A stretch of 64,000 bases of DNA from Phoronis australis (taxonomy: Eukaryota; Animalia; Phoronida): assembly GCA_002633005.1 (NCBI GenBank), contig NMRA01000110.1:771786-835785 (forward strand). Reading direction: 5' to 3'. A program made the translations under genes and the position numbers. Positions 1 to 49,200 of the stretch are shown piece after piece. How positions within the stretch are numbered: the stretch's first letter is position 1; every line of letters begins with the position of its first letter. The notes beneath the pieces are model-generated. The model was not told the origin of the DNA, did not search any database, and worked only from the letters and a program-made list of their open reading frames with translations.

Positions 1-437
1 CTTTTCTCCTAAATTTTACAATAAAAGCATAATCTCTTGAGCTTGTTAAAAATGGCAGATTGGTATTTAGTCAACTATTAAATTCTATGTAAATTCTGCT
101 TTCAGAAAATATATACTTTCACTGAGAGTTAAATTTTATAGTTTTACATATATTTTGCTAAATGTACAGATTTGTCAATAAGGTCTTATGTAACCTTAAG
201 GTGGTTGTTGTTGAATGTTAATAAGAACAAATGCAAACAACAGTCAATGTTTTACTCACAGCCGTTGAATTTGCATTAACTTGCCTAGGACTGTTTTAGT
301 CCCATGTACCACGAAGTGATTGACTTTTGATAATGATAAGCCCCAGTTTAATGTCTATCAGTTATCAAATGTTAGTTCATTGAAAAAACACCGTATGAAG
401 GTCTTGAGTGATTATGATTATTTTCTGTCTGCAGGAT

Positions 438-21628: not shown

Positions 21629-22155
21629 TTCTTTCAGTGTAAATTTTCATTCCAACGAACATCAACATTTCATCGATACGGAGCCTTTGTGTAGGTGGGA
21701 CCTTCAGGTAAAACGAACTACCTCAGTGGGTACATGCCCCGACTGAGGCCAGTGGCCTGTTCCGTGTATTTGCATAGCTCTGTGGACAGGCGTGGGCATT
21801 CGGGATACAAACAACAATAGGAATAATTAATTTGTTCATTTTTAGAAACCATATTCACTCCATAAATATTGGGGTTCGGTATAAAACACATGCAACAATG
21901 GAATTTACAAAATAACCTCGTAACATTTAACCACAAACTTTTGTGAAACAGACAGAAATGGCATAAACAAACTATGGCCATTCCGTCAAAAAGACAAAAC
22001 TGCCTCGCATATTTACATTACTGAGTTAAACAATGAGGTTCCTCTTCACAATGCACAAACTAAACCATGAGGACGAATACAGAAAAAGTGCTTCTAAATG
22101 AATTTTAGGCCCACGTTGTGGCTGAGTAGCAATTGTTACAGGTCATTAAAATAAA

Positions 22156-26802: not shown

Positions 26803-26969
26803 TGAACCTTCAAAGCGAGCTTGACATCCTATGAAGCAGTGTTTGACCCATCGGTAGAGTACCATGACAATATCGGATTCGCGTAGATTAAGCGGTACAA
26901 GAAATCACAGGATACAGTTGCAAAGTACAATTTTTCATACTGCCGGTCCAGGTCGTTGTCACTAATCTT

Positions 26970-27553
26970 TGGTGGGCCGTTCAGGAGAAAGTGTCGCCGT
27001 AAAATTACGCTCGTAATTACGAGCGTAAATTAAATTGAAGGAGTGTCGCCGTACGATTACGCTCGAAAATTAAATGGGGAAAAGTTTCGCCGTAAAATGA
27101 CGCTCGTAATTACAAGCGTAAATTAAATTGCAAAAGTATTGCAGTAAAATTACGCCCGTAAATTAAAAGGGAGATATGTCGCAGTAAATTACGCTCGTAA
27201 AATACTTTAAGAACGTTCCAACTTTAAACCAATCAGTGTTAACCTAACATAAACGACTGTTGCTGGGCAGCTCGTTCTTGCACAGTCGCTGACATTGCAG
27301 CGATTTGATCCGCCATAATTCAACGCTCGTAGCGTACTAGTAGACATGTAACCCGTCGGTAAATAAGTATTTACATGGGCGCGTGCGACCGTGAGTTGTA
27401 AGAGTTAAACTAAATTACGAGCGTAATTTTACGCCGTAAAGAATTAAAATACGCTCGTAATTTTACAGCGTAATGAACGGTGTAAATAACGGCGCAATGT
27501 AAATAATTACTCTCGTATTTTTCCGGCGACACTTTCCCCCCCAACGCCCATCA
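26970..27553. mobile_element. MITE with subterminal aattacgctcgtaa repeats and ~9-10 bp TSD (Mutator-like)
   Basis: Termini tggtgggccgtt..aaagtgtcgccg / cggcgacacttt..aacgcccatca; flanks cactaatctt (26960-26969) and tacttatctt (27554-27563). The empty site (cactgatctc, ~8930) is present in duplication copy 1. Confidence 0.85.
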
Positions 27554-27839
27554 TACTTATCTTAGCCCTACGTCGGAGTCATTCGTCCAGTATGTAAACA
27601 CTTAGGTCACATATCACATGAGAACAAAGAGTATTGCTGCAAAGAAATTGACGAAGGCAGAAAAAAATTCTTTAAGAGAATAAAGCTACTATAACAAAAA
27701 ACTTTGCGATATAGAAAAAATAGTGTAATTAATGATTTCCAACGACAAATGTGTTTGACTTGGTCTGAAAATTTGACACTGACATAGCATAAAGTATTAG
27801 AGTTTCTGAGTTCCGAATCGCCGGATTTGTAAATTAGAG

Positions 27840-30800
27840 TTATTGTACTGAATAAGTCAAGTCAATTTCGAAATCGCATATGATGAAAGTGAATCTGTAT
27901 CTATGAACAATGAGTGATACGAGGTAAAAAATGGCGAAGATGTTGAAAACAGAGATCAAGATTGCAAATCGCGCCAAATAAGTCATGTAGCAGTAACAAC
28001 GTTTCCTACAAAGATACATGACGGACACTGCGATGGTTATAACAGAACACAGAAGCATAGACAAACACACTGCGGTAAGCTCAACACTATACCTAAGATT
28101 GTCGATTTCTTCTCCTTTGTGTCGGACAAACTTTTTGATCATAGAAAATGTAGTAGATAAATAAATATATCTTTGTCCGAGTTCAGAATTTTCGGGTTCG
28201 TAAATTAGCGCATTAAACATGTAGTGTAACGCTAAATCATATCTCTTCGTAATAATGTAAGATGATGTTATGCCACTAAAAATTACTTTTTTACACTCAG
28301 ATATATTTAAACAGTATTGCACCATATCAAGAGCTATGAAAAAATATTGCAAGGACAGATTGAACTTGCCTGTGACGTAGTCGGCATATGCAACGCGGAT
28401 GTATTTTGTCACAACGCTGTTTTCAAGTGAAAGTTTCTTCTCCAGTTCTGAACCAAACTCTTGGAACTGTGTCGCTATGATGTCTGCTTGACAATCCTTT
28501 GCAGCACTGATGAACTTTGAAAGTTTTATAGAATAGTCTATTGTATTCGAGCGTATTAATTTCCTAGCGGACATACTGTTTTTGTCGTTTAGTTTATTAA
28601 GTGTTAATTTAATTGACTTCAGTAAATACATTCGAGCAGCATCGTAATTCCTTTCTCTTGAGTGAATCAGGTGGATGATATCTAATGTAATCCGAACGAG
28701 ATGGACACTATCATAATCATTACCCAGAATGCACGGGTATAATGTATCAAGTGACCAATGAAGATATCTCAATATAGTAATGTTTCTTCCTCTTCCTTTT
28801 GTAAAACCGATCTCATACAGCATCTGTGTTAGGTCTGTACCAAGAGTTGGGCAAATCGCTTGTAACAATGGCAAAAGAATATCAAAATGCCGCGCTGCTT
28901 TCTCGAAGTCATTGCTATGATACATGTAGTTAAGGAGCGTGTACTGAGCGTCAATTACGGCACCAACAGGTGTTTTCTCACCAGTTGGTCTGGGGAACAA
29001 ATAACCTAACATTCTCGTTTCTTGTAACAGTTGCCGATAATCTCTTTCCCTAAACGTTGATCGCGATTCAAGGAACTGGTATCCGTATACCAGATGTTGT
29101 GTATTGAAAACATTCAACATTTCTTTTATTTGCAGAACCCTCGACGAAAGATCCTTAAAAAGCTCCAGGTAACCCAGAGATCTACTTGCCTCGCACAAGT
29201 TCACCAAACACGACATAGTGTACGGATCAGTGGCGTCATAGAAAATTTGTTTTCCTTTGTAGTAAAAGCTTCCACAGAACACCCCACACTCCTGCTTTAA
29301 AGTTTTGGCGGCCCATGTGTTTTCTAGATGTCGGACTAGCTTGTTAAGAGCATTTTTGAATGACAGTGATCGTATTTCTATTAAACCTTCTATGTATTGG
29401 TTGCAGGTATAGAAACGCTCAAAAGTACAAACGGGACTATAAATAGAAAATTCGTGCAGTATGCAGTTGACGAAAGGGACGACTGTACAGAAATATCTAA
29501 AGAGCAGCAATTTGCTTTCTTGAACGGACGACACCTTTTCTGGTCGAGGCCAGATGTCCTGTGATTTCACGATCATGAGTTCATTTTGCTGCGACATGTT
29601 GGTGTACATTACAAGCCGTAAGTGTGTTACTATGGATATTGCGACTCTTAGATTATGTCCGGATTGTTCTGCCATAATTCTCTCTATGACCATTTCATCC
29701 AAAATTTCCCACGGAGTATTGCTATTTAGAGAGTAAACGGTTTTAAACAAATTGATTACGAGGCTGGGTAACCTGTACATCCCTTGTTTAATGTCGAAGA
29801 CATCCCCATCACCAACGAAACACAGGTGTGGTAAATATCTTTTCACCACCTTCGTCATGTCATGGTGAGCCTTAGACCTCGCTGCTTTCAGTTTCGTTTG
29901 TTTTCGTCTGTTGGATTTAAATTCTTCAATCAGTCTATCCGCCCCGTGGCTCCCGCCAATTTTGACTATTGATGTTAATATGCGATCAATATCATAACCT
30001 TCCTTCAGAGATGTATTATATTCACAAAGTTGTGCCATACGTTGAGGTGTTCTAATTAACTCGATTCCTTTCCTCATTGGTCTATCAGGACGACCAAGCG
30101 GTGTGTGGCAGGCATGTGGCGCTGTGCTATCGAACTGGAAACCGCGGGGAGTTACTGTATCTTTGAACCAGTCTCCTCCGGGTTTGTCGTTGTCGTTCAA
30201 TGATTTGATTTGCATCGATTTCAAAATAGTTTCTCTTAAATTCAAAACAAATAAATGAACCATTCCCACTAAATTCCTAAAATATTCAATGTTGTTTTCA
30301 TCTTCAACCAGTATGCACCACTCAATGTCGGAATACGTTGTCGTTTCACCTCTAGCCAGAGAACCTAACCCTAAAACTGCAAACTGTTGAGGAGGTGTTC
30401 CCAGTATCCTTATTGATGTAAAAATCAAACTCCAGAAAAAGGTTCTCACCTTTTGACTAACGTCTTCGAACAATTGCCTTGTCTCACGAACGTATTCTTT
30501 TTCAATGTCTATTCGCTCGTTGTCTGACAGATTTGCACTAAATTTAGCCTGAATTTCATGCATCAACACGTTCGCGCTGCGAGACGTCGTCTCTCTAATA
30601 TTAGTTAGATGATATCGAACTTTGGAAATGTAATTTAAAGGTGTTTTTTCACATTTTAGAAACAGCATCTCGCAAAAGGCAACTTCATTTCTTTTTACGA
30701 CCTCTTTGATTTTTTCAGTGGCCTTTGATCGCTTGGTTCGCAAAATAGCGGCATTGTAGAGCGCAGATGCTTTAATGAAATCGCCACGGAGCTTTGTCAA

Positions 30801-30860
30801 CGTACCCCTCTCTGCATAAATATCGCCCATTTTTTTCAACAGCCAACTGTCTCTTTCCAA
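27840..30860 (-). CDS. GlnD/DUF294-type nucleotidyltransferase with helical bundle, TPR repeats and two C-terminal transmembrane helices
   Basis: 1006-codon ORF; the frame stays open to 30947 and the first ATG is at 30830. Pol-beta NTase signature FAVLGLGSLARGETTTYSDIEWCIL (GS to E at 30321-30365); candidate third acidic residue in TPRGFQFD; DIKQGMYR..LRVAISIVTHLRL helical bundle; TPR-like units such as IFSGITSSYIITKRYDLALHYMFNALIYEPENSEL; hydrophobic segments LTAVCLSMLLCSVITIAVSVMYL (28011-28079) and FAILISVFNIFAIFYLVSLIV (27906-27968). True start codon uncertain. Confidence 0.88.
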   Translation of the reverse strand: MERDSWLLKKMGDIYAERGTLTKLRGDFIKASALYNAAILRTKRSKATEKIKEVVKRNEVAFCEMLFLKCEKTPLNYISKVRYHLTNIRETTSRSANVLMHEIQAKFSANLSDNERIDIEKEYVRETRQLFEDVSQKVRTFFWSLIFTSIRILGTPPQQFAVLGLGSLARGETTTYSDIEWCILVEDENNIEYFRNLVGMVHLFVLNLRETILKSMQIKSLNDNDKPGGDWFKDTVTPRGFQFDSTAPHACHTPLGRPDRPMRKGIELIRTPQRMAQLCEYNTSLKEGYDIDRILTSIVKIGGSHGADRLIEEFKSNRRKQTKLKAARSKAHHDMTKVVKRYLPHLCFVGDGDVFDIKQGMYRLPSLVINLFKTVYSLNSNTPWEILDEMVIERIMAEQSGHNLRVAISIVTHLRLVMYTNMSQQNELMIVKSQDIWPRPEKVSSVQESKLLLFRYFCTVVPFVNCILHEFSIYSPVCTFERFYTCNQYIEGLIEIRSLSFKNALNKLVRHLENTWAAKTLKQECGVFCGSFYYKGKQIFYDATDPYTMSCLVNLCEASRSLGYLELFKDLSSRVLQIKEMLNVFNTQHLVYGYQFLESRSTFRERDYRQLLQETRMLGYLFPRPTGEKTPVGAVIDAQYTLLNYMYHSNDFEKAARHFDILLPLLQAICPTLGTDLTQMLYEIGFTKGRGRNITILRYLHWSLDTLYPCILGNDYDSVHLVRITLDIIHLIHSRERNYDAARMYLLKSIKLTLNKLNDKNSMSARKLIRSNTIDYSIKLSKFISAAKDCQADIIATQFQEFGSELEKKLSLENSVVTKYIRVAYADYVTGKFNLSLQYFFIALDMVQYCLNISECKKVIFSGITSSYIITKRYDLALHYMFNALIYEPENSELGQRYIYLSTTFSMIKKFVRHKGEEIDNLRYSVELTAVCLSMLLCSVITIAVSVMYLCRKRCYCYMTYLARFAILISVFNIFAIFYLVSLIVHRYRFTFIICDFEIDLTYSVQ

Positions 30861-33800
30861 ATCATCTCTCGATCCATTTAACAGAGTCTCGGCAAGGAGT
30901 TCTTCTTTCTTCGCCAGGGCTGTCAGTCGCTTCTCTACAAAATGTTGTCAGTCCATCAATAGATAGCTTGCACAAAAGTTTGTTTCAAATCAAATTAAAA
31001 ATTCCCAAGAAAATAATTTCACACCTTTTAGTCGACGCAATGATTCCTCTAGTCCACTGACTTTTAATCCAATTTGTACACCAACACAAAATACGTCTGC
31101 AATCTTTTCATGCGATAAAAGAAAATAATTCTATCTCTGAGCAGATTAGTATGGTGACCATTATTGCTGTAAATCAACACAGTAATTTTAAATTTTCAAC
31201 ATTTGTTTACAAAACACGGTGCCCGTATGTTTCAAAATTCTCTATGCACGACGTCATTCTCAATCATATACAATTATTCGCTCTTGTTTAAGTTAATCAT
31301 CACAGTGGTATCCCGACTCACAACTACGGCATTTGCCAATTTGAGTGTGAAAGTTGCTTTGGCAATGCCTTCCTGGTGTTATGCATGTCGCCCATGCGAG
31401 ATATGAAACATCCATGGGGCCATCCGGAACGCCTGTGGTAGCTTCGCAGCATCCTGGATGGTTCCGCACGTGCCTAGCCAGCACTCGTGCGGGCTATCAC
31501 CTAGCGGCATGCAAGGAACCAGCGAGCTTAGCATCATCCCTCATCTGAAGTATCACAGGTATTTTTGTAGTCTCAAATTTCTGTGCATGTGCGAATTTCA
31601 CCCATGCGGTAAATAATGAGACGGACAAATAGGAGACTAATGGGCCGGATGACTGAAATTCGCGCGTAGGCTAGGTTTCAGATGGTACTTACTGGTGTCG
31701 AGAAAGCTGGAATTTAGTGTCGCAGCCATAGCATAGGGCCACTACAAGTTTAATATTTCAAACTGAAGCTCTCTTTCTTAAGAAACGAAACGGTTTGTTC
31801 AGAAATTTTCTTCTCAGCTCATGGAAATTATCAGCAACTCATTATCTGTAACCTCTCGTTGAGATGAAGGTGAGAAAGTTATAGATGATGTCACCACGGC
31901 AGCGACATAACAACAAGCCAGGGAAAGGTACATAGAGCAGAGAGCTCTCCTTTGCCAAATTGACAGTGAGGCCATTTGTAATTCGTTAAGGTGTTTGCTC
32001 TGTTTATAAAATACACTACTAACAGTCCTGATTTTTGAATGTTGAGAAAAAAATCAATAACTATATCGATTGTATTGATTTTCAACTATAAGACAGTAAT
32101 CAGATCTGCGTTGACAAAATGAAGCCATAAATATGTCCAAAAAACTATCACCCCGAAACAAAAGAGCAAACTTATCATCTCGGAGAATCCTACACGAGTT
32201 TCAGGTTTATGACTTGCGCAAAACCTCTTGGAAATTTCGTCAAAATCCAGAGTGTAGGATTTGTTTTCTCACATGAACCCTTTTTGATTCACATTCAGCA
32301 AGACATCGAAAAGATTTTGGTTTTGAAAGGGTGCTCAATCTTTCTTCTTTGCGTCAGTGTAAAATGAACACGATTCTTTTGTCTGAAAATGTTCTTAAAG
32401 TTTAGTTGGAAGAAAGCAGTTTTTTCCAAAATCCTAATTCTACCGGGGTCGAACTAGAGTACATTAACACTGTCAGATATAATTTTTGTTTTTAAGTTTT
32501 CTACACGCATTTATTTAATATTTCGAACTCCAAATAAATTTCGAATTCTAAGAGTTGACCATTTTTGAAGGAGTTCGTAGAAACGATTTTTTATATTCAA
32601 CATAATAAAAGTAAAATGTTGTCTTTTGACATATCTAAGTAAAAATCAATTGTCAACCTATAAAAGTATAAATTCCCAGAAACCATGAGTCGAGGCAAAT
32701 CTATTCAAGCCATTCTGGTCCCCATGTGGCCATGTGTTACAAATTTCGTTTTTACAAATGTCGTTTTTAGAAATGTGCATTGATAAGGAAAAAGTCGTTT
32801 CAAAACTAAACTTCTCTTATCAAATTTTTAATAAAATTGCTCGAAACTGGCCTGGGATTTTTCGTAACTTTCACCGATGTTTTTCTTAATCACCAAGAAA
32901 CGTTCAGCCTTGACGAACACTTCTTACAAGTTCAACTAGACGGACGAGTCAAGTTAATAAATTATAGGAAGCAGAGTACCATTAACAGAGCGGAACGCAA
33001 ACTCACTGGTCTCTCAGCAAGTAAGATTTTAAAATCTAAACACTACATTAAATACAGCATTGGCGAAAATTTACTAGTTATTGCTTGAAGTCATTAAAGG
33101 GACGTTTTTAACATCCTCTCTGTAAAATATGTTCCTATTAAGGCCCTTAAGACTATACATTTGAAGCTGTGACAATGTCCGGGTTTCAGTACCCTTAGCA
33201 ATAACAATTACATTTTAGCTACGGCTGCCCCTTCGTAGGTCACCACTTGTCCGAGGAGCCCCTTTAGCGACGAAAGCGGATCTCAATTTTCATTGCGCTT
33301 GATTGCCACGACTATTCAATTACGTCTAAGACTGCTCGGTGACGACGAGACGAGGTCTTTTTTTCGTGAAAGGCTCTACTAAGCTGGAACATTTTACATT
33401 AACGGATTGCCCATCCCCCGGCCCCCACAAAATTCTAAATAGCCTCTGTGGGAACATGATGGGGTCTCTAATCAACTTAACATGGCTAATTCGGCACTAA
33501 TTTAGTCAAGACTAAGATTTTACCCGATTCGTCCATTGAAACAGAACATGGCGAAATCACATTTTCGGTCTACTCGGAAGTATCGTTTACGACGTTGAAC
33601 TGCCGGTCAGGCAAATCACAATCAAGGTCCATATTCGGTGGCCACTTTTGGTGAAAAATAAAGTTTGTCATAAAACACTAAAAGATGGGTTTTTAATGTA
33701 CCATCATTCCTGGTTTATAATCTAAAATATTTGTGCACAAGAACCACCAAATAAAATTTTATGGCCCAATGCCTCACAGTTGTATAAAAGGGTACGCACA

Positions 33801-34619
33801 CTACAACTTGTGGTCACAGCCCACTTCTATCATGCAAAAATTCATAAGGTAGATTTAATTTAATGACTTCTTAATCAAATTGAAGAAGAATCACATACTA
33901 AAGTAAAAAAAATTATTACTGTGCTAATTAAGTTGTTCCAGATGATGATACATTGCATATCTTAACATATTATAATAAGAACTTTTTCTCTTGCAATACG
34001 ATTCTTACAAAAAGAAAATGACAAGTAACTCGTTTTTTCAAAAACTTTATTGGTGGTATTTGCCTAGTTTTCAATATATTCGCAAGTTGGTCAAAATAGT
34101 TAAAGCAATGCAAGGCCCAGTGTTCAACTGGTAAACAGTAAAAAATGGTTCTGGTTGTTGGGTACGTACACGACGTAATTACGCACAGTCAATCAACATC
34201 AAATTTTGACTAAGTTACAAATATATAGTGCTGGCGAACTATACATTTATTCACATAAAATTTAAAAACTCCTATTTTAGTAAAACATGCCAAAATCGGC
34301 AAACCTATTACTTTCTGTTTGCACGCCACCCTGGCGTTTACTTGTGTTACTAAAACGTAAAAAAAATTATTTTCCGAATACATACCCATAGCCTTATCTA
34401 CGGAAAATCCGGGTAAAAGCGAAGAATATGTCCCTTTGATATGGCTTTCTGACGTGTTCATACACTAATTTTGAGAGTAGGTGTCGTAAAAAGAGAGTGT
34501 ACTTGAAATCGCTAGAACCTAATGCACTTGGAATGTGCGTGGCCTTTAGATTTTGACGAAATTTCGCCCATGTAAACAATGTGAGATTCATTTAGGATTC
34601 TCTATATGAACAACTAGAG

Positions 34620-35950
34620 CATATGTACAATATTTACAACAATGATTATGCAACACAGATGCATAATAGAGATTTAAGACCTGACATCTGGTACAAAGTT
34701 GACAGTCACATTCAGTGAGGAGACGTAAGGCATGATCAGCTGAGACATAATACCTAAGCGTCCGTGCTTAATCTAATGTAGTTAGGTAAGCTATTCCAAA
34801 ACAATGCTCCCTGGCAGGAAATGAAATTATAACCATAGGAAAAGGTGTGGACAGTTAACATGTTTTCCGAGTGAAAACTGTAGTGTTACTGTATTGACAC
34901 GAATTTGTGAGACAGTGTCCATTTTGTGAAACATGTTTAAACCCTTTAATTGACAGAGATTTGAGCCCTGCAACTGACAAGGGGAAGTGAGTCTGTCCTT
35001 AAAAATTCAAAGTGAGATGATCTAGAGTCATCAAATATACATCAAAGAGCACGATGTTGGATCTTTTCTATATTTTTGCTCATCTGTAAATTACCGGTAC
35101 CAATCAATGACAAGTAATAAAAACATGAGCTTACAAAAGCATGGCATAAGTTTAATTTGCTGTCATTGTCTAGTAGATGTCGAAGTCTGAAAAGCTGATT
35201 TACTTGGCTGGAGACCATCTGACAGACAATATTCACATGGTTATATAATTTAAGATGACGGTAAAGATGAAGCCCAAGTAGTTTGACCGAATTCACATTT
35301 AATTCTCAATCAACAACCAGTAAAAAGTTTTCAGCATCATTTAACATGCCCTTTTTGGAAAAGGTAATGGACTTTTAAGTGAGTAAACACTGTTCACTGT
35401 TTGCTGCCATATTGTTTGCTGTAAATCAACGAGTGGCCACACGAAATGAGCACACAGATTTTGTCTTGTATTATTTAAAGAGATACTGATATCAAGAATA
35501 GTGTTAGCCTCAACATAGTTATACATAGAAGAGGTTATTTATAAAATATTAAATAACATAGACCCCAGGACAGACCCTTGGGGAACCCCTTTAGAGAACT
35601 CGGACCATAATGTGATTGAGCATCCTATATCGACCCTCGTGTCTATTTGCTAAATAAGATTTTAAAAATGAGCATACATTATCGGAACAACCATAACCTC
35701 TGAGAATAGCAATCAATAAAGTATATGAGGTACAGTCAAACGATTTGGACTGATCGATTAACATACAGCCTGCTATGTGACTTCTGTCCAAGGCCACAGT
35801 TGACTAAACAGAATGATGTCAAAGTGAAGTTTCAACTATGCTTTTTAAATATCTGGTTAACAGTGAGCAATAGAATTGAACTGGCCTGTAACATATTTTG
35901 TGCAATTTATCACCTTTTTGAAAACTGGGCTAACTTGGCTTTTCTTAATT
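34620..35950 (-). mobile_element. Degenerate CR1/L2-like LINE fragment, copy 2
   Basis: ORF pieces 35591-35797 (LIDQSKSFD..LLIAILRGYG..SYLANR) and 35042-35296 (SVKLLGLHL..HVNIVC..LFRLRHLL..IEKIQHRAL); duplicate of 13430-14790. Confidence 0.82.
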
Positions 35951-36785
35951 CGGGATTAAGGGGTAGACAGAAGAACTCAACTACTTGTTGAAGTAGGAGT
36001 GAAGGACTTGCTTAAACCCTAGAGTAGAAATGGACAATAGTCTGTCGTAGGATTCAGTGTGCTGTTAACACACACGGGAAAACGGTTCTGGTAGAAAATG
36101 TGCTCCCTGCGTCGTAGATAATACATCACAACACGTTTCTTGCTGATAGCAGTTCGTAAATCAGACGCTGGGATTGCCCAACCGGTCATGCAAAGCAGTA
36201 TGGGTCATATTTTGGAGTTCACTAAGGGAATAGCGTATGTGCGTTATTGAATAAGCTAAATTTAATGGATGTTCTCGGGCCTAAAATATTATTCAGTATA
36301 GAGGGGTGCCATGTAGTGCACACAAAAATAAAAAATTAATTACAGGTTAGTTCGATAGTCCGAACGGAGGAGAGTCCGAATGAAATTCTCCCGGCCGACA
36401 GCGTTTAATAATCTGACGGGCACTGAACTTTGGCGACGGCACGTCGACTCACATATAAATTACCATTTTAACAACTGAATTTCTTGATTTTTGAAGTTTG
36501 CTATGTATCCAACATATGAGAATACATAAATGCGAACGTGGAAAAGTATAGTTTTGCTGAAGGCGGGAGTGACTGAAGTAGCCTACCAAAATAGAAATCG
36601 CTAACTTCAGAATGACAGTTTCTGCGAAAGAAAGTCTTCTAAGAGTTTTGAAATTACCCAATTTTTACCAAATTCCATCACTGATAAGTACACAATGTTT
36701 TTTGCGGTATTGTGCGTACATTAGAAGATACGTCTGCATTCGGAATTATGTGTTAGCGCCTATACGCGAACGAAATGAGTAAACC

Positions 36786-37375
36786 CTCGCTGGTTCCCTG
36801 CGTGCCGCTAGGTGGGGCGGTAGCCCCGCCAGCACGCAGGTATCACTTAAATTTCCTCTGTAAATTTTTTTACACCGGCTTTTCTGATTGGCTAGTCGAA
36901 TTCTCAACAGGCAGCGCTTTGCGCAAACAAACTGGCATGAGTGATGGACTGAAGTGTAAATGTGGTCTGTTGTACAGACAAATCGGTGCTTAAAATTATG
37001 TTCAGGAAATGTGAAGCCTAGAAATTGTGATTGAGCCTTTTTGGAATGCATCTTTCTCACTGTCGATGACTTTTGTTTACGATATTGTCCTTATACAGTA
37101 TGGATAACACACCGGTTAAATAGGCCACATAATATGTGTTTATTGTGCATGTATGTGCTTCAAGCACGCGGCTATTAAACATCACTGCAGAAACGAAATA
37201 GTTGCTGCGACGCCACTTGCATGACAAGGCTAAAAATCGTTCACATCCGCCATTTTTTTTACGGTGTTGTAAAGCTAGCCAATGACTGCCAAGATTACAT
37301 CGACTAATGCTAAAGCGCGTGCCACTGCGTGATACCTGCGTTCTGGCTGGGCTAAGCACGCAGGGAACCAGCGAG
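36786..37375 (+). mobile_element. MITE with 20-bp TIR and 10-bp TSD (Mutator-like), copy A
   Basis: TIR ctcgctggttccctgcgtgc / gcacgcagggaaccagcgag; perfect TSD tgagtaaacc (36776-36785 and 37376-37385); sister copy at 58130-58700. Confidence 0.93.
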
Positions 37376-39944
37376 TGAGTAAACCATGTTTCAAATTGGT
37401 GATCTGGCGCATCCCGTCATTTAAAAAAATATACACTGATATTCGGCTCGCGTAATGTGTTGGAAGATTCTTGCCAATGTGGATAAAGGCTCGCTCGGTA
37501 CGCCTGTCCTTTGGTGCGTGTGTACATGCACGTACGTGTTTGCACATTAGTTTACATCCAGATCGAACACTTAAGTTTTCTTTTTAGATGAAATTTGGAG
37601 GCTTTACTTAACACCTATTGAAAATTTCAAAAATTGCACCCCGAAAAAGTGCCCATACAGAAGAAGAAATTTGCGTGAGAATGATTTTAGACGGCTTTTA
37701 GTGACTTTTAAGAAAAATTTGCTCGTGACGTCAGACTTTAAACTCAATCGTGCACTTTTACCCAACAAGTTGAACTAAAAAGGTGGAAACGCACAATTCA
37801 TTTATTTAGTCGACCGACTATTTTGTTAGTAAAAGGTCCACATCGCCAGGAATTCTAGCCCTCCATATTGAAGGCTGGGTGCGCGAATGCTCTGAATGGT
37901 TTTAATTTAGAATGTAGGAACTTAACTGAGAAACTGTAGAACTAATATAAACATGCCGTTTCAGCCCGAGAGAGGGCATCAGAATTCACTACGGAATTAA
38001 TATACCACGTAAAGTGACGGCTGGATATAAGAGACAAGAGGCGCTGCGGAGAAGATAAGGCAGTGAACTTATGTTGTCTGCCACACCTAGAAACCAGGCA
38101 TTCGCTGAAATCTACTGGCCAGAGTGTCTAACAACTATCCGTACCGGTACTTAACATGACATTATGACTGAGATGAAAGCAGACAATGAGGGAGCTAGAC
38201 TATGTAAAAATTTGATGTTGTCAAACTGATAACGACACGGCTCCCCACTGGCCGACCAGTCAATCGAGATACTTATTCACCGGTGAAATCGGCCAGAAGT
38301 GTAAGCATTGTACGTGCTTCAAGCACGCATAACTTCAGAAACGCCCGAGCGCTGTCACGCCACTGACAAGGCTAAAAACCGTTCATAGTGCGCCATTTTC
38401 TTTCTTTGTTGTGAAGCTAACCAATGATCGACTGCCTGGGTTATATCAACCAATGACAGTTTTCGTTATATCAACCAGTGATAAAACGGCGTGTGCTACT
38501 GAGTGTTCGGCACGTAGGGAACCACTAGCTAATCGAGCTGACAGTTCATGATGACTGCACAACCTGCCAAGGTGTTTTTTCTATTCATATGCTTTAAAGA
38601 GTTCCCACCATATATGTTCTTAGTTTTTGAGGTTTCAGTTACCTAATATGAAATAAATCCATAAAATAAATAAATAAATAAAAATTCCACAATCCATTCG
38701 GGGGTTCGGTCTGACGAGCAAAATCCTGGCTAATAAATAGTCATATGCCCTGCACACCTCTTCCTTAACTCAAAATCCTGGATCCGACCAGGTTTTTCTC
38801 AAGTTAATTTTGAAGAAGAATTACTTATTTCCAAGTTTCCCGCCAAATGATGTAATAGGTGGAGACATCAGGTGTAATGGGGAACACAGCATATCAGAGG
38901 ACGAGGACCTGACGATTTTGAGCGAGAACTGGGAAATTAGTATGCACTGAAAGAGAAGAGAGTGGATACGGGCATAACTCTGAAGCACTTGAATAATATC
39001 AGACAATATTAGCTACACCTTATGCGCATAGCTTCCTAATAACAATGAAACAGCAAGTGAAATCAGAACATCTTATATCTTAGTAATGCATATTTTTAAG
39101 GAATTTTACGTCTCACTATGAAACTACATTGAACTTGACAACTGCAGCTATACCATTCAAATACATTGTACACATGTGTTACCTCAAATGATTAATTTTC
39201 ATCTACTGATCTAATCATCCCAACAAGTGTGAGTCAGTTCATGAGTTCAATTCGCTTTTTAAGTTGTTTCAACTTTAATCACCATTGACGTTCAAGCTAA
39301 AATTGGCCAATCGAGTATAGTATTGGCTTAGAGCCCTATTTGACTCGGGCGGCGTCATGTGCAATAATACCAATGTAATTGGCAATATCCTTTCATCCCA
39401 AAGTACAGTATTCATGTTCTACATAATAATGCACAAATTGTCTACCACGTTGGCTCATACCTATTTGTATTAATCTCACATCTGTAGTACGCCTATCCAC
39501 TTCACTTTTTAATGTTACTCAATCATCAGTTTTCTATTTACAAAATTTAGCCTAAGTTAATGTAATTAAATTAGTAGTGGCATTTTCACGCCTACCCTAG
39601 TGTTTACCCCCCTAGTGTTCATTGCTTTTGCCCAAGCTTACTTAATTACTTTTAGTCTATTCACACGCCTGTATATATTTATTTTTTCTGTTGTTAGATA
39701 AGCATGCTAAGTATGAACTGTATGAATTTATTAGGCTTTAACTACACACAGAATAATTACAATTGTCCGGGTGTCTGGAAAACAAAAATACCCCATTGCT
39801 TTTCGCCTATCACGCTCGACCTCACTTTTCTACTAGGAAAACGACCCCGAACTGCGCACTTACGTAATGTTTACTACACAATGAAGAACTCACGTTGTGA
39901 TATCAGAGTTGTCATTGAGCAAAGCCTTTTGGCTGCTGCGCACT

Positions 39945-42657
39945 GACATATTCACATTTAACTGGACTGAAATCAAATACTGAGCAAAAGTGACATAAAT
40001 GTCACAATCTCAACATTCACTCAGTCACTCTACGACATACTAAATAATAATATCCCATCAACCATGAAAACAATAAAAAACAAGAACAAACCGTGGTTTA
40101 ACAAAAACATTAAGTATGAAATAAATAAAAGAAACAAACTGTACAAATCGTTCAGAAAATCAAATAACCCCTGCACGTTTAAGTGCTACAAAGAACAGTG
40201 CAAGAGTGTAGAAAAACTAATCAAAAAGACGAAACAAGACTATAAGATGAAAATTATCTCCAACTTCAACAATGTCGCCAAAAATCCAAAGGAATATTGA
40301 GATATAATAAACAAAATTCGAGGACAGGTAAAGCAATCTTCATAGCCCACCATCCACTCAAAGGAATCCAACACTGAGGCGTCATCCAAAGCGGAAAAAG
40401 TAAGTTATTTTTAGAATACTTCACCGCCAAGAGTCACCCTGCGCCAACAACAAGCTTTCCCGAATTCCCAAACAGAACATTAGAACACCTCTCTGACATA
40501 CAAGCCCAACCATCTGAAGTCCGAAAACTACTAGAAAATATTGACGAAAACAAAAAAGACGGTACCAATCTCATAACCAATAAAATGATTGAGATAATAG
40601 CAAGAGAGCTTACAGTTCCTTTGACAACATTATATAAAAAATACTACAATCTGGAAAATTTCCTTTGAACTGGAAACTTGGTGTTACGATACCAATACAC
40701 AAAAAGAACTCCAAAACAGACATTGCCAACTATCGCCCCATAACTCTACTTAACACCCTATCCAAAATTTTAGAAGAAATAATTTCTCAACACATGTTTG
40801 ACCACCTCTCTTCACAAAACCTCATATATCGTAGCCAATTCGGATTTATGAATGGTAACAGCACTGTGTCTCAACTTACAGAAATTGTACACGAAATCGG
40901 CACCTCCAGTTTGAGCAAGGATACAACGTGAGATCCGTATTCTTAGACATTGCGTCAGCTTTTGATGTCGTTCCCCATGACCTGCTTCTACATAAATTAC
41001 AAACTTACGGTTTCTCAGGCACTCCCCTATTACTTTTAAAATCATATCTGGAAAATCGAACTTACAAAGTCCGAATAGAGGGTGTCTTAGTCACGCTCAT
41101 CAACGCCAGGTTTCGTAAATGCTGGAGTACCACAGGGTAGCGTACTAGGCCCCTTACTCTTTTTATTGTACATCAATGATCTTCCAGACACAACAAACCC
41201 TAAAACATTCTTATATGCTGATGACACTACAATTTTCCATCCATTCTCAAAAGAGAATCCCCATGACTCATTACAATTGGAAACTGACCTAAACAAACTC
41301 TATGACTGGTCTTGAAAATGGATGATGAAATTTAAACCTGAAAAAAGTGTTGATCTTACATTTTCTAAGTCTGATAATACTCAATTTTAAACAAATCCAA
41401 TGCTGGAATACTCATTGGGGAAGATATTCCCAATAAGTTCAAACACAAACACCTTGGATTGCTACTAGACCACAAGCTTACATTTACTCCTCACTGTCGT
41501 GAACTCGTTCACAAAGTACAAAAATTAATCAATCCAATTAGAATTGTCTCTCGTCGTCTCAACTCCATGCATCTTAAAACTCTGTTCAAGTCTTTTGTTC
41601 TTCCACATCTAGATTACTGTGACATAATCTACCAATCGGCAAACGCTGGCATACTTCTTCAATTAGAAAGACTACAATACCAAGCAGCTTTAGCCATAAC
41701 AGGAGCATACAAAGGGTCCAACACAATCAAAGTTCTAAACAGTCTCAACTGGAGCAAACTAGCAACCCGTCGTCAACTCCACTTGTCCATGTATACATTC
41801 AAAATCTTAACCAACATAAACAATTACTCATACAAAATCCTCTTTGATTCCTGCAAAAGACCTAACAAGAGACCAGGACTGCGGCAAAGTAATATGCACA
41901 CTATTCCATCTTTCCTCAACCAGGCCTTCAGGAAATCTACCATATTAACTTGTATTGACAACTTGAATTCCTTACCATCCAAAATAAAAGAAAGCACTTC
42001 AATCGTCACTCTAGAAAATACTACTACTCAAGAGTTGCCAGTCCCATTGACATCGTTCCAACTTCCTCGCAACCATGAAATAATCCTATACAGATCAAGA
42101 TGCGGTCTATTTCTAAACAACGAGAAATTTAGACATAATTTTGATAATATTTCGCCTCTGTGTTGCTGTGGAGATGCGCAGACAAATGCTCATGTTTTCT
42201 GTGCTTGTGAGGTATGCAAGGAGCAGAGATTACAGTTTTTCCAGACACTCGAACAATACCCAAATATATATAAAAAATATTCTGAAATTCCTCAAGTGTA
42301 CAACAAAATTAATTTTTTCTATATGGAAGCCAAGAACTCAACCCAAATGAAAATAAGGTTTTATTCGAAATATCAAAATTTCTTTATAATATTAAATCTA
42401 TTTGTGTGAGTGGATAGAATTGTACAAATGTGTATGAAAATGATTTATTTACTTTCGTAATCATATGTCATTGTAATCTTAACAGTTTTTTAATTTATGT
42501 ATTTGTGTAAAATAATTGTATACAGATTTCTTTTTTATGTATTTGTGTAAACTAATTAAATATAGATTTCTTTGTACTTTTTTAACCCAGATATAATGCC
42601 TCTTGGCGCTTTCTGGGTTATGTATATTTATTGTATCAAAGATTTCGTAATAAACTT
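39945..42657 (+). mobile_element. 5'-truncated, frameshifted CR1/L2-clade LINE (RT), copy 2
   Basis: ORF pieces 40064-40300, 40665-40931, 40928-41140 and 41459-42409; [20 protein letters not shown] and LYADD motifs; AATAAA at 42649-42654. Shares the DWS*KW stop with copy 1. Confidence 0.9.
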
Positions 42658-43259
42658 CAGACAATGAATTCAATTTCCCACTTAGGGAACTTTCGGCGAC
42701 TTTCAGGCCGCCGGCTCATACGGTATGAGCTCGACCCACTAGCACAAGAAATGCTGCAGACACTTGGGTATGGTTGCATTAGTTGAAATGCGTGATCTAC
42801 TTGATCTACCGAATTTTACCTACCCGTTACTTAGTGAATTCCCGCAAGTGGTGTAACGAATAGTGGGAATATTTGAATAAGTGGCAATGCGTGTTTGGAG
42901 TCTCTAAAATTGTCAGCCAGTTGATGATGTCTTGTACGTTATCTTCCAGCCCGCAGGTGGCGCAGTGATTAGTGGAAATAGTTGAATTAGTTGAAGTGAG
43001 TGTTTTGTGTCTCTGAAGTTGAGAAGCTGTTGCTGACGTCTTCGTCCGTATGTGGAGCAGACGTAGCTTGTCATATTTGAATTTGCTTGGAACTTAACGC
43101 TGACTTCTTACCTGCGTATGAAGTCACCATTTCATCTTTCATTGCGCTACAGGCTTTAGCACCTCCTAGTGCCAGTATTTATAAGAGTAAGAAAAAAGTA
43201 ACATGGCCGGGGGGCGTTGCAATTAGTTGAACTGCAGCTTCCTGTTAATCTATTAGTAG

Positions 43260-46230
43260 GTCCCTACCAAAGATCTGCACTTGAAGACTACCAAAGCGAG
43301 ATATTTTCGAATTATGTTAAAGAGCAATTTTTCAAACGCGTCTTATTTGTAGGTCCCTATCTCCTTCGGCGTCAAAGCGTAAGGTCAAAGTCACAGACTT
43401 CCCCAAATTTCCAAATTTGATCCTCCGCTGCTACCTTATTAGGCTCGCCGGAAGAGTCGACTCACGCATTTGGAGTGAGTAAGTAAAGGGCTATCCAACA
43501 AAGAGAGAAGTTTTGAAATCTGGATAAAAAATTTAGGCACGAAAAAGTCTAAAAATGACGTTTTTCAAATTTGATCTTGCCGCGTAACCTTTTTAATAAT
43601 CCGATCGAACTAAAACTTGGTGGGCTGTAATTTCTCACACTCTACGTCCACCTGAAAAAGAATTTTTGAAATTGGAGACAAAAAACTTTTTGGCCCCCAA
43701 AAACCCTGTAGGCTTTTTCGGTAGAAAAAAATTGTCTTTGATTTTAAAGTTTCCGTTTTTATTTGAAAAGCCAATAATCTTTTAAATGGTCAGTCCCCAA
43801 GTTTCAGCTTGATTGACCTACTAATTAAAGTCACTGTGGCACACCAAAGTGACTCACCCAAGGGTCCTTTTTTGGAACCAAAATTATTTGTTTTCGATTT
43901 CAAAAATTCTTTAAGCATCTGATAGCCCCCTGTCTCTCCCCTCTAGAAATGTAAATGTCGTACTTTTCCTGGCCTTAGTAAGGCCGGCCAGAAGGGCTCC
44001 AAAGTGACCTACCTCATCACAATACCAGAAAAGTTGTGTCAAAATGTTAGCTATAGTTTGGGAAGTCATATTCTCATGACCAATGACCTGAAGACTACCA
44101 AGGCGAGACATATTCGAATTATGCTAAAATGCAATTTTTCAAACGGGTCTTATTTGTAGGCCCCTATCTCTTTCGGAGTCAAAGGTAAAAATTGTCTTTG
44201 ATTTTAAAGTTTCTGTTTCATATGAAAAGCCAATCTTTTAAATGGTCCGGCAGTACCCAAGTTTCAGCTTGATCGGCCACTAATTGAGGTAACAGTGGCC
44301 CAACAAGTGACTCACCGAAGGGTCCTTAGTGGAACCAAAATTATTTTGTTTTTGATTTCAAAAATTCTTTATGCGCCTAATAGTCCCCTGTCTCTCCTCT
44401 CTAGAAATGTAAGTATCGTACTTTTCCCAGCCTTCGATGTGCTGGCATTTTTAGCAATTTAAGCCAATACTTGACCAGTTTAACAAACAGCTTTACATAA
44501 ATTGGATACCTTCCCAGGACAGCATGATTTGGACAGTTGCTTCCAACACCCAGCAGTTGCTTACAGAATTTCAATTGGACGCGCTCGATACTAGAGTATT
44601 CTTTAAATTCCCAAATCTCACTTCCATAGCTAATGATTGGGTATACCATTTTATCAAAAATCTCGAGTGCAATTTTTGGTGAAAATCGTCCACATTTTCA
44701 CTGAAAACGTTTAATTGAAAAAATTGCTTTCTGTGCCTGGTGAGACAAAGTTTCCGTAGCTTGCGTCCAAACTAACTTAAGTGTAAGGCAAATACCCAGG
44801 TACTTATATGATGAGACGACATCAATTTTGTCATTTCCAAAATGCCATTTTTCGTATTTTCTCAATGGTCCGCCCTTTCTAAATACCATTATTTTTTTGT
44901 AAGATTGACTTTCATACCCCAATCCTGACAGTATTCATGCAGAGCGTTAATTTGTTGCTGTTGTTTAAATGCTGTCTCTGCACAACCAACCATATCATCA
45001 GCGTATAGCAACATACAAATTTGAGGCACATTCTCATTCACGTAAATTCCGCTAATTAAAGATTCTCTTAAGTAATCAACAAACTCGTTCAAATACATAC
45101 TAAATAAAAAAGGACTAAGCATACACCCTTGGCGAGTACCAATATTATTATCCCAAATCGACCTTCCCTGTTCAAAATATCAGAAAAGCTGTTTAAAAAA
45201 TTAGCTATAGTTTGGGAAGTCATATCCTCATGACCTATGACCAGAAGACTACCAAAGCGAGACATTTTCGTATGATGGTAAAGTGTAAGTTTTCAAACGC
45301 GTCTCATGTGAAGGCCCCTATCTCATTAGGAGGGTTAAGGTTTAAGGTCAAAGTCACAGACTCCCCCAAATTTGTTTCACCGCTTTTATTTTATAAGGGC
45401 TCGCCAGAAGTGGCAACTAACGTATTTGGAATGAGTACGTAAAGGGCTATCCAACAAAGAAGTTTTGAAATCGGGGTAAAAAAATTTTAGGTGCGAAGAG
45501 GTCTGAAAATGACGTTTATCAACTTTGATCTTGCCGCGTGACCTTATTAATAATCCGATTGAACTCAAACTTGGTGGGCTTTAGTTTCTCAGCACTCTAC
45601 GTCCATCTGAAAAAGAATTTTTGAAATTAGAGAGAATTTTTTTTGGCCTCTAAAAAACCACGGACCGTAGGCTTAGGGTTTATTCGATCGAAAAACTTTT
45701 TGTCTTTGGTTTTAAAGTTTCAGTTTTTATTTGAAAATCCAATCTTTTAAATGGCCAATACCCAAGTTTCAGCTTGATCGGCCAACTAATGAAGGCCACA
45801 GTGGCCCACTAAGTGACACACCGGTTAAATGGGCCAGATGCGTATTCTACCCGCAAACCAGCGAGTGTCGTCTCGTGCAGCTACTAACTAGCATGGCGGA
45901 GCAAAGCATCAGTCGTCGAAGGTAATAACTAACAGGTGGCAATGAGGAACACCAAGAGGTGGGCAAAAATTCAGTTTCGATGAATTTTCAAATCGTCCAG
46001 CAAGAACTTGATTCCGGCATTTTGGTACACAATTATCACTCAAGAAAGTGTTCACGGCAACGCTAGTATACTTTTTAAAAATTTGGTCGGAGTGTTGGTG
46101 AGGTTGCGCACAGCTAGACGAGTACTTTTGTCAATAGACGCACGGACACACGACACACCTACAACATCGCCTTCGACATAGCCACAGAATAACAGTAGTT
46201 TTGACGCTCTCGAGAGCGAAGTTAAAATTA
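43260..46230 (+). repeat. Helentron-like tandem array, copy 2 (interrupted by a LINE fragment)
   Basis: Units start at ~43280, ~44090 and ~45245 (aagactaccaa.gcgaga); palindrome cgctctcgagagcg at ~46205; duplicate of 19420-21628. Confidence 0.6.
44435..45151 (-). mobile_element. Internal LINE RT fragment inserted into the tandem array
   Basis: GTRQGCMLSPFLFSMYLNE..LLYADDMV..WGMKVNLTK..YKYLG..SYGSEIW..IERVQLKFCKQLLGV (ORFs 44889-45122, 44698-44922, 44401-44649). Absent at the matching site in copy 1 (~20535-20557). Confidence 0.9.
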
Positions 46231-49200
46231 CTTCTTTCAGTGTAAATTTTTAGTCCAACGAACATCAACATTTCATCGATACGGAGCCTTTGTGTAGGTG
46301 GGACCTTCGGGAAAAACGAACTACCTCAGTGGATACATGCCCCGACTGAGGCCAGTTGCCTGTTCCGTGTATTTGCATAGCTCTGCGGACAGGCATTAGG
46401 GATACAAACAACAGGAGTAATTAATTTGTTTATTTTTAGAAACCATATTCACTCCATAAATATTGGGGTTCGGTATAAAACACTTGTGATAAAAATCTAC
46501 ACATGCAACAATGGAATTTACAAAATAACCTTGTAACATTTAACCACAAACTTTTGTGAAACAGACAGAAATGGCATAAACAAACCATGGCCATTCTGTC
46601 AAAAAGACAAAACTGCCTCGCATATTTACATTACTGAGTAATACAATGAGGTTCCTCTTCGCACTGCACAAACTAAACCATGAGGACGAATACAGAAAAA
46701 GTGCTTCCAAATGATCAACTTCAGTTGCATTGTTTCAATCACTAATCAATCATTTAACCAACATTGACGATTACTTACAGGAAAACCCAAACGGTCATTT
46801 TTCAAGTCTCACACAGCAGTATAATAACACTGAAATCTAAATTTTCAAAAAACGAGACAAACCAATTTAGAAGATGCAAAAGAGAAGGCTCAGATTTTAT
46901 TAATGGCAATGGTTATGATGATATCTGTTCACACGTGTAGTGGTTGGCTATGATTATATATAACATCAAAAATGGACAGAACTTTGACCTATACATCACA
47001 GTCACTGCAACCAGAGATTCTAACAGTCTGTCTCCACCAGAGTCCACAAGATGGCGCTTTAAGAAAATGTAATCCAAATCACCATCTAGAAAACGAACAA
47101 GTGATTAGCTTGAACAAAACAAGGTTCCATCCACAGCCAGCAAAAGTGCTAACAATCCGTGAACACACAAACACACAGATAAACTTGTTTTACTTAAACT
47201 GTAAGTAGCCGCAGATAAGTTGGGCCAAGTGAAGTGCATCGCCAAGGAGCTGACGCGTGAGTTTGTTAAACATGTTGAAACACTACCACACATAGTGGAT
47301 GATGAAAGTTCATAATGTAGGATCTGTGTTGAAATACCTTCATTACATCTCTATTTGTACAAAATACAGGTGAATTGGTTGGCCAGAACTGTGGGAGCTA
47401 TACCAAACACCACTACAGACCAAGGATCACCAATAATAGTTTGGCCATGGACAAATGGACATCTAAAGTAAACACTGTCCTAATCCAACACCTAACTTAT
47501 GCGCACAGCAATCTTAATATACAATTGTTAATAATTTAGACAAAACGTTACTTAAAACTCTACACCATCAGTTAACAGAGCACCATTGGTTGAATACAAA
47601 GCAGGTAACATTCACCTGTACACATAAAACACTGTACAGACATATCTACACTACAATTCATGAGTAGGCGAGAAGAGTTAACAAACAATCCGTGATTTCA
47701 AAAGACAAACGGTTCAAAGTTAAATACAAAATGTTCATTCATTGTAACAGTGCTATCACGCAGCCAATCCAACAGATTGCCACTCATGACATAGTACGTG
47801 TTCAGACACCATGTTGACAACTGTTGCCATGGTGATACAGTATGGCTATGTCAAACGCAAGGTATTAAATACAAATAGATCACGTGTTTACTTTAACATC
47901 AAAAAACTAAAGCACACTTAAACGGAACTTAAACCATTCATGCTTCTTACGTTCATTTATAAATCCAATAAATATAAAACAAGTTTCAAACCACAAGCCT
48001 CAACTGCTGGACATCACAACGGTTCTGGTCATCACCAGCAATCACTTGAAGATCAATGCTATGTCCTCATGAGAGATCATCTCCAAATTAACACGATTGT
48101 CCAGTTGCAAAAAGAATCGACCAAAATTACAAAAATCAGCCACACACCCACTGGTAGTCTTAGTGCAGGCTCAACACATACATGTCAATTACAATACAAC
48201 CACAATGGGTAGCATAGCATTACAAGATACAACCTACGCGACCACTTACAAGCTTACCAAATTCAATCAAGACCCTAGGAATCTTGAGCCCATCCTTTTG
48301 CAAAANAAAAAAAAAAAAAAAAAAAAAACACGTAACCAGTTTGAAAAATGATTGGTTCGCCGATGCCCCCTCTACAGGATAAAACGTTTTCGGCCAGATA
48401 TAGAGGTGCGCATGCGCTACTTCCTCCATCTTTGACCGGAAGTCAACGATTTTTGGCACAGTTGTAGCACACGATTTTGACACGGGGGTTGCTTGCACAA
48501 ACTCAGTATTTTATCTCCGACAGGCGTACAAGTAAAAGCACAAGTGAAATCCGCCATGTTAACTATTTAGCTTCGTTCAATTCAGAGTTTTGTGTTTGTT
48601 TTTAGAAATTCAATAACCAGTTCACCATCACAAGTTGGACAATTCAATGGGATTAAGGAAAGAAGGCTTCTGATGTTTATGCAGGAATATTCCTGGATGC
48701 GCATTTGTGCTATTAGTACATGTACGTGTACATACAAAAGGGAAAAAGTACATTACAGTACATGTACATGTAATTCCACCCCCAGACGCATCTTTTAAAA
48801 CGAACTGTTCCAAAAATACAAGGATCTAGTAACTTACAGCTGTACAGCTTACGGGTAATGTATACATGTAGGTTGCAGATTGCATTAAAATGAGTGAATA
48901 GGCCGTTAACACTTTCCGATAGTTGATCGTAAATTGCCATTCGTGTTTAAAACTTTTACATGAGCATAACTGCGTTCTAATTTTCAATGCCCTTGAGGTT
49001 TCTCTTTCATATGTTACCGCTGAATTACACCAAGTCTGCCAGAACCAACTTTTTGAAAAGACATACTTTTGTCATCAGGGGCACCCAAAGGGCACATGTT
49101 CAAATGTGGTCAGAAATATCCCTGTTTATGTAATACCAGTCTGAAGGAGTTGCACACAGATTTTGGTTGGATTTAGAACTGTTGAAGCTGGGAGCCTGGG

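Follow-up and report, generated by a model that had tools for sequence, protein, structure and literature searches.

Background

The N-terminal domain of the Legionella effector DrrA and the glutamine synthetase adenylyltransferase GlnE (GS-ATase) share a G-X11-D-X-D motif with a third acid, bind Mg2+ and transfer AMP to proteins (PMC7815794, PMC12409994), and the activity of DrrA is turned on when Rab binds to a second site (PMC7815794, PMC12409994, PMC12894286). In the excerpts available of one of these papers the fold is treated as bacterial (PMC12409994), and the GlnD/GlnE/DUF294_C group was likewise given as bacterial in PMC3710099. The NEX2 family of Neochlamydia has expanded by birth and death, and its tested members carried a working type III secretion signal, according to the part of PMC4209131 that was available; this suggests that the enzyme class works inside eukaryotic cells. 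In animals, the reviews, as far as their excerpts go, give Fic and SelO as the only AMPylase classes (PMC8097203, PMC13459536), and the tetratricopeptide repeats (TPRs) of FICD are described as selecting its substrate BiP (PMC8065156, PMC8097203, both in part). Here we describe a gene from a 64,000-nucleotide stretch of the phoronid Phoronis australis (contig NMRA01000110.1, positions 771,786 to 835,785; the whole stretch is called the window) whose product, judging from models and profiles, belongs to a large family of invertebrate nucleotidyltransferases predicted to be of the DrrA/GlnE type.

No literature account of the animal family was found in full-text searches, whose coverage left out most subscription journals. 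The family was not covered in the available parts of PMC3482391 and PMC8195603, and the supplement of PMC3710099 held no match to it. The kind of enzyme is already known and its bacterial NEX2 counterpart has been described, while the animal family is apparently unstudied. A sequence-only reading of the window had proposed a candidate new system; what was found is one family member without partner genes and not a system of several parts.

Catalytic domain and predicted fold

The longest frame in the window is a stop-to-stop frame of 1035 codons, which contains the following parts.

27840..30947, minus strand: stop-to-stop frame, probably the last coding exon (from 30934) of a gene with nucleotidyltransferase, HEPN, TPR and transmembrane parts (open reading frame list, paralogue comparison)
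30666..30944, minus strand: N-terminal helical hairpins forming a conserved TPR-like family cap, residues 2-94 (family alignment, model)
30402..30632, minus strand: two long helices packing on the catalytic lobe, residues 106-182 (structure models)
29949..30392, minus strand: Pol-beta nucleotidyltransferase core, residues 186-333 (Pfam, family alignment, structure matches)
30365, 30329, 30323 and 30131, minus strand: core residues G195, D207, E209 and the putative third acid D273, respectively
29451..29891, minus strand: HEPN-like helical lobe, residues 353-499, arranged as in DrrA and GlnE (family alignment, VIA-align)

The catalytic motif, GSLARGETTTYSDIE, reads G195-X11-D207-X-E209. Residues 156-227 matched Pfam DUF294 above its gathering score (E=2e-5) and SidM_N below it (E=3e-4, 20.6 bits against a cutoff of 27), and the only sequence matches in the PDB were two DrrA entries, weak and lying over the motif. 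In 170 of 172 domain copies, drawn from 169 proteins, acidic residues occupy all three of the positions D207, E209 and D273, and we infer that these are the metal-binding acids. In the HEPN-like lobe the conserved residues are K387, Y391, R392, R444 and Y448, with K387, R392, R444 and Y448 kept in 84-88% of the same 172 copies. On a family profile built without it the Phoronis protein scored 464 bits, and it carries the family motifs GS-A-x-E-x-T-P-Y-S-D-x-E, LxET, GFxFDG, KxxxYR and RxxxY as well as the TPRs, with T204 replacing a family P and S274 a family G (each 94% in the family).

AlphaFold2 models were built for the whole chain with 60 sequences and for residues 100-505 with 69 sequences. 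The mean predicted local distance difference test score (pLDDT) of the whole chain was 76, with low confidence at 797-837 and 1007-1035; the domain model reached a pLDDT of 87.5 and a predicted template-modelling score of 0.89. The domain model was compared by VIA-align with 48,161 solved chains, and the 50 best entries were examined. DrrA was the best match (6yx5, Z 26.8, 310 residues aligned, 3.6 Å), followed by two GlnE domains (1v4a, Z 24.2, 321 aligned, 3.4 Å; 3k7d, Z 23.1, 305 aligned, 3.6 Å), and the next unrelated entry stood at Z 10.1. HEPN domains matched the C-lobe only (Z 8-10), the C-lobe of DrrA giving Z 13.4. Foldseek returned the same top three. The sequence-only reading had seen a Pol-beta motif with a downstream Asp followed by a helical bundle, had placed them on the GlnD/GlnE/DUF294 branch and not with cGAS or OAS, and had proposed structure prediction with Foldseek as a check; all of this agrees with the predicted Pol-beta fold and with DrrA and GlnE at its top.

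The domain is very probably an active nucleotidyltransferase of the GlnE/DrrA class, as far as models and profiles can indicate. Some observations weigh against so simple an assignment. The second acid of the motif is Glu (D-X-E), where DrrA and GlnE have Asp, and E239 and D263 are conserved about as well as D273 across the 172 copies. The aminoglycoside nucleotidyltransferases (ANTs) also come into view at this point: ANT(4')-II was the best weak match in NCBIfam (E=0.0018 over 41 residues, far under its cutoff), and ANT structures were the next structural group after DrrA and GlnE. Together with the D-X-E motif, these would fit an enzyme that transfers a nucleoside monophosphate (NMP) to the hydroxyl of a small molecule or sugar, in detoxification or on microbial glycans, as ANT(4') does. 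However, the ANT entries reached no more than Z 7.7 against 23-27 for DrrA and GlnE, and the long TPR arrays and ubiquitin-system fusions of the family point to protein partners, so that we regard a small-molecule acceptor as very improbable.

Another product to be considered is a diffusible cyclic or linear oligonucleotide, made when the TPRs bind a ligand, which would define a second-messenger pathway independent of cGAS. This was among the proposals of the sequence-only reading, and it draws on the enzyme-plus-repeat layout, on candidate defence models that match the motif region weakly and on the oligonucleotide-bound nucleotidyltransferase HalB of the Hailong system (9dbh), which VIA-align placed at Z 6.4. 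The HalB score, however, lies inside the background range, while the top full-domain matches are protein-modifying enzymes, and the best OAS row in Foldseek (OAS1) had E 0.98 and probability 0.08. cGAS, cGLR and CD-NTase entries were absent among the 50 VIA-align rows listed, although that list alone says little about families outside it; Pfam gave no match to Mab-21 or OAS at E up to 0.5, and no nucleotide-receptor gene was seen among the open reading frames of the window. We therefore consider second-messenger synthesis improbable. All of the best three structural matches modify proteins. The acceptor is probably a protein, by analogy with DrrA and GlnE, and protein NMPylation, which the sequence-only reading had offered as the other option, is the best inference.

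The full-length GlnD equivalog of NCBIfam scored 11.8 bits over 34 residues against a cutoff of 799. In the frame, Pfam gave no match to GEF (guanine nucleotide exchange factor) or P4M families and none to F-box or OTU, the missing first exon being probably short.

Relatives and phylogeny

When residues 1-516 were used as a cluster-search query, 1,536 clusters at 50% identity were returned at E up to 0.001, 1,055 of them to 1e-10 and 318 to 1e-30; the best 150 of the 1,536 were examined. Named members came from amphioxus (Branchiostoma), hemichordates (Ptychodera and Saccoglossus), a tunicate (Styela) and an annelid (Owenia), with the amoeba symbiont Jidaibacter as a named bacterial member, and many further members are unnamed. 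The first three Atlas clusters (scores 0.92-0.96) were 85-97% eukaryotic. In databases the relatives are automatically named 'Protein-PII uridylyltransferase N-terminal domain-containing'.

When 185,579 prokaryote genomes were scanned by pattern, 60 matches were obtained, and 20 of these were confirmed as loci. By their titles, 11 of the 20 belong to Chlamydiota, Holosporaceae or Midichloriaceae, six to unclassified Gammaproteobacteria and three to uncultured bacteria. No close relative was confirmed among the 34 pattern matches in metagenome contigs, and none among the 47 in viral contigs. The statement in the sequence-only reading that such proteins are expanded in invertebrates and intracellular bacteria is thus supported by the cluster count, by these 11 loci and by Jidaibacter.

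An unrooted IQ-TREE tree of 67 rows was built from 40 hand-picked proteins and 19 of the 20 bacterial loci (L020 was left out). In it the Phoronis protein grouped with all 19 named animal rows (SH-aLRT 97), and 17 of the 19 bacterial loci and all Jidaibacter rows fell outside the animal group. The other two loci, L008 and L013, one of them titled Chlamydiae, were placed on a long branch within the animal group, which may be an artefact or an animal-to-bacterium transfer. In a 189-row FastTree tree deep support was weak and animals and Jidaibacter were not cleanly separated; the sister group of the Phoronis protein differed between the two trees.

Extra domains were found in 8 of 23 homologues picked for length, comprising F-box, OTU, RickCE, ankyrin, IRF, Death, Roc-COR and GT4-conflict, although some of these fusions may be gene-model errors. 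Among unnamed homologues, P0048 combines Roc-COR with Death, P0058 Roc-COR with GT4-conflict, and P0062 carries IRF. Two or three nucleotidyltransferase domains per chain were present in P0023-P0028, P0042, P0081, P0160 and P0169, either as real proteins or as fused tandem gene models.

Gene frame, tandem paralogue and transcription

The 5' edge of the frame and the duplication that contains the gene bear on how the protein is expressed.

30935..30956, minus strand: likely intron 3' end, CTGAC with TTTTGTAG acceptor, overlapping an in-frame ATG-GAC-TGA (conserved in the paralogue)
26837..46714, no strand assigned: second copy of a segmental tandem duplication, carrying the gene and a LINE (long interspersed nuclear element) remnant; the first copy lies at about 8813-22101 (window self-alignment)
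9391..12169, minus strand: broken tandem paralogue with frameshifts and in-frame stops (alignment to the gene)

The frame of about 1000 residues that the sequence-only reading had called intact is open over all 1035 codons, though without a start codon: its first Met is residue 40, and the ATG-GAC-TGA lies in frame just upstream. The branch-point-like CTGAC and the acceptor (intron end 30935) are nearly unchanged in both tandem copies, which makes the frame most likely to be a terminal exon with just its start missing, joined at 30934 to a short upstream exon that we infer from the sequence. The position of the catalytic motif is residue 195, and in 70 of 155 single-domain homologues it falls at 180-235, so little seems to be missing from the frame. 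The depth of sense-oriented RNA reads drops at the candidate intron end. On the other side, the first exon was not found: no splice joint at the acceptor was present among the RNA joints listed, and a scan for donors gave many candidates, none of which stood out. Read-through of the upstream TGA instead of splicing is less likely. RNA reads at 45856-46500 were seen in three runs in a single orientation, the same as over the nucleotidyltransferase gene; this region lies inside a block in which the duplicates are about 91% identical and could be a candidate first-exon region or another transcript. An Rfam search of the window gave no match.

The segmental duplicates are 73-94% identical by block. 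The broken paralogue, about 19 kb from the gene, has eight frame-breaking indels and seven stops over its aligned coding part, and its DNA is about 87% identical to the gene over the 5' part, falling to 73% over the 3' part. A remnant resembling a LINE reverse transcriptase is present in both duplicates (16138-18562 and 39971-42409, open reading frames read by eye), and a cluster of repeats of about 440 bp also lies within the duplication.

RNA reads were taken from about 18-19% of three RNA runs and placed at a likeness of at least 82%. Only 70 reads were placed in this way, 2 of them with an identity of at least 99% and 25 with 95-99%. The reads mostly have one orientation, which fits a minus-strand transcript if the libraries were stranded as usual. 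Among the 40 read variants listed of 53, 18 match the paralogue in the window and 22 match neither window copy; therefore, there is transcription from other paralogues or alleles. Low-level transcription of family members and the presence of several copies, on which the sequence-only reading had made its proposal depend, are supported by these reads and variants and by the tandem paralogue. Three reads of run X1 exit the gene at an internal CAG (30385), just ahead of the catalytic motif, into sequence outside the window, and possibly represent an alternatively spliced transcript of another paralogue.

Degenerate repeats and the hydrophobic tail

The C-terminal half of the frame contains the repeats and the candidate membrane segments.

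28203..29399, minus strand: degenerate TPR-like array, residues 517-915, diverging fast between tandem copies (model, profile, structure matches)
28017..28073, minus strand: hydrophobic helix 1, residues 959-977, Kyte-Doolittle hydropathy (KD) 2.45 (hydropathy)
27906..27962, minus strand: hydrophobic helix 2, residues 996-1014, KD 2.65 (hydropathy)

Pfam TPR families gave no match to the protein. On the family profile built without the query, however, residues 500-945 scored 25.5 bits, whereas the highest of 200 shuffles reached 7.8, and the region was modelled as helical hairpins that match TPR structures and Atlas TPR clusters. These residues are, on the evidence of profile and model, genuine but degenerate TPRs, and the earlier identification of TPRs holds in this form. 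Their proposed role as a ligand sensor is not supported; the TPRs of FICD instead select its substrate (PMC8065156, in part). Between the tandem copies the ratio of nonsynonymous to synonymous substitution rates (dN/dS) rose from 0.24 for the catalytic core and 0.33 for the helical lobe to 0.58-0.84 across the TPRs. This gradient from core to repeats is suggestive of fast TPR evolution. It has to be set against the rise of dS along the gene, from about 0.2-0.3 to 0.6 towards the 3' end, in a single pair with a pseudogene as one of its members; conversion or mosaicism may be partly responsible.

Both terminal hydrophobic helices that had been noticed in the sequence are present, and several properties of the tail speak for a selected anchor. 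An open tail of 100 codons has a probability of 0.0025 under its own composition, at least two such hydrophobic segments turned up in 51 of 3000 trials with stop-free 100-mers matched in base composition, and T stands at codon position 2 in 45 of 100 tail codons against 32-33 at the other positions (p=0.006, post hoc). Other properties weigh against a functional anchor. The C-terminal pair was found in 0 of 168 homologues, a search with residues 640-1035 found no relative, the tail has the T content of the downstream non-coding DNA (0.37 in both; 0.38 in the paralogue tail), the paralogue tail does not align to it, and none of the 70 placed RNA reads fell on 27640-28607, which covers the last TPRs and the tail. 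Any segment of 19 residues with hydropathy of at least 2.0 was found in 4 of 169 proteins, and the three besides the Phoronis protein have a single internal one; a marginal C-terminal segment was present in 2 of 166 Met-starting homologues (hydropathy 1.84 and 1.94). Among the relatives examined, this copy alone has the candidate anchor, so that membrane anchoring, which had been put forward as a feature of the system, gains no support as one. As to whether the pair is a functional anchor in this copy, we consider the chances to be even.

The claim of a cytosol-facing enzyme did not gain support from the loop between the helices, which has a net charge of +4 and three cysteines, the ten residues ahead of helix 1 having a net charge of -1. 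By the positive-inside rule, a net-positive loop has the wrong bias for the luminal loop of a cytosolic enzyme. N-glycosylation sequons are not enriched (7 against 5.8 +/- 2.2), therefore a luminal enzyme gains no support either. A signal-like N-terminus was found in 0 of 166 Met-starting homologues, and this lack of signal peptides in the family favours a cytosolic enzyme as judged from sequence, although the loop charge points the other way.

These observations also bear on whether the gene is a decaying or marginal paralogue, its tail being T-rich 3' sequence recruited recently by stop loss or replacement and its full-length protein rare or absent. The neighbouring copy is already broken, the tail aligns to the paralogue worse than the non-coding DNA behind it does and shares its T content with such DNA, no read was placed on it, and degenerate TPRs, the T204 and S274 deviations and the stretches of low model confidence would all fit. 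However, 1035 codons are still open despite 13-27% DNA divergence from the paralogue, the tail shows the features of open frame, hydrophobic pair and T enrichment given above, the putative catalytic residues are all kept, and some sense-oriented reads are 95-100% alike. Decay is unlikely in our view.

Proposed function and its setting

Using ATP and Mg2+, the predicted enzyme would AMPylate a side chain on its protein target. Its degenerate TPRs could select that target, or could confer allosteric activation as Rab binding does for DrrA. The setting would be host-microbe conflict or immunity, and the C-terminal helix pair would possibly tether this copy to a membrane, the catalytic part facing the cytosol. 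A protein AMPylase with TPRs that pick the target or activator in such a setting is a tentative proposal, which we rate at slightly under an even chance. Considered separately, a conflict or immune role is somewhat favoured; the bacterial relatives are mostly titled as intracellular lineages, the fusions are of conflict type and there is local birth and death of copies.

A protein AMPylase could also act outside immunity by regulating an endogenous protein at a membrane, for instance a trafficking GTPase or a chaperone, as FICD does with BiP. The analogy of layout to FICD, whose TPRs select BiP (PMC8065156, PMC8097203, as far as the excerpts go), would fit this, and the grouping of 19 named animal rows in one tree suggests long vertical retention. 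Lineage-specific paralogues, tandem decay and fast TPR divergence are, however, unlike a housekeeping regulator, and the fused domains of the relatives are of conflict type, which leaves a non-immune role rather improbable.

The immune reading could be taken further: the family would form a third, highly expanded class of protein AMPylases in invertebrates, common to the secreted effectors of intracellular bacteria, with variable, fast-evolving TPRs that sense a microbial or damaged-self protein and then turn on AMPylation, and in this copy a newly gained two-helix anchor that converges on the layout of FICD with another catalytic fold. This extended version is speculative and we consider it unlikely. 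If the activity is true, the family would be a third metazoan AMPylase class beside Fic and SelO. It comprises over a thousand clusters with near-invariant acids; animal members come from chordates, hemichordates and annelids, and the others mostly from bacteria living within eukaryotic cells. The importance rests with the family more than with this copy and its candidate membrane tail.

Neighbouring features

A single open frame of the TRIM-NHL type with RING, B-box, coiled coil and NHL repeats (408-2198, plus strand, 596 aa) lies about 7 kb from the broken nucleotidyltransferase copy. A dispersed repeat of about 600 bp, at 36784-37376 and 58128-58701, is 90% identical between its two copies and abundant in RNA reads on both strands, and is probably a non-autonomous transposon.

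Bacterial contamination or a recent insertion was considered as the origin of the gene and rejected. The GC content of 39-41% is like that of the flanks and the gene groups with named animal rows (one tree); the LINE remnants and the RING-B-box-NHL frame around the gene, and its location inside the segmental duplication, also speak against contamination.

Comparison with described enzymes

cGAS, cGLR, OAS and the CD-NTases have the Pol-beta superfamily in common with the Phoronis protein but probably belong to a different branch (OAS1 E 0.98 in Foldseek). FICD (HYPE), a metazoan AMPylase, has the logic predicted here of a candidate membrane anchor, TPRs and protein AMPylation, as an analogy only. 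It differs in its unrelated Fic catalytic fold, its N-terminal anchor, its location in the lumen of the endoplasmic reticulum and its being mostly single-copy (PMC8097203, in part).

With the AR and AT domains of GlnE the Phoronis protein shares a nucleotidyltransferase core and a HEPN-like lobe (Z 23-24). Compared with GlnD, DUF294 and DUF294_C, it passes the DUF294 gathering score but has no full GlnD match. It differs from both GlnE and GlnD in having one nucleotidyltransferase domain, with no ACT, HD or CBS domain found and no nitrogen-regulation context.

The layout of DUF294 followed by a TPR array recurs in Neochlamydia NEX2, given as F-box with or without OTU, then DUF294, then TPR in the available part of Domman et al. 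2014 (PMC4209131). Proteins of Parachlamydiaceae and of Jidaibacter (F-box, nucleotidyltransferase, TPR) are direct sequence relatives, while NEX2 is likened by layout and not by alignment. NEX2 and the Jidaibacter proteins are secreted bacterial effectors with F-box or OTU, whereas the Phoronis gene is a chromosomal animal gene without these.

The closest match is the N-terminal adenylyltransferase domain of the Legionella effector DrrA/SidM (6yx5, 3nku; PF20879), which has the same two-lobed fold (Z 26.8). The G-X11-acid-X-acid motif is common to both and the local sequence is near-identical, although overall identity is 13% and DrrA has D-X-D where the Phoronis protein has D-X-E. DrrA carries GEF and P4M domains that the Phoronis protein lacks; the latter is encoded by an animal and adds an N-terminal helical cap, a TPR array and a hydrophobic tail to the shared catalytic fold.

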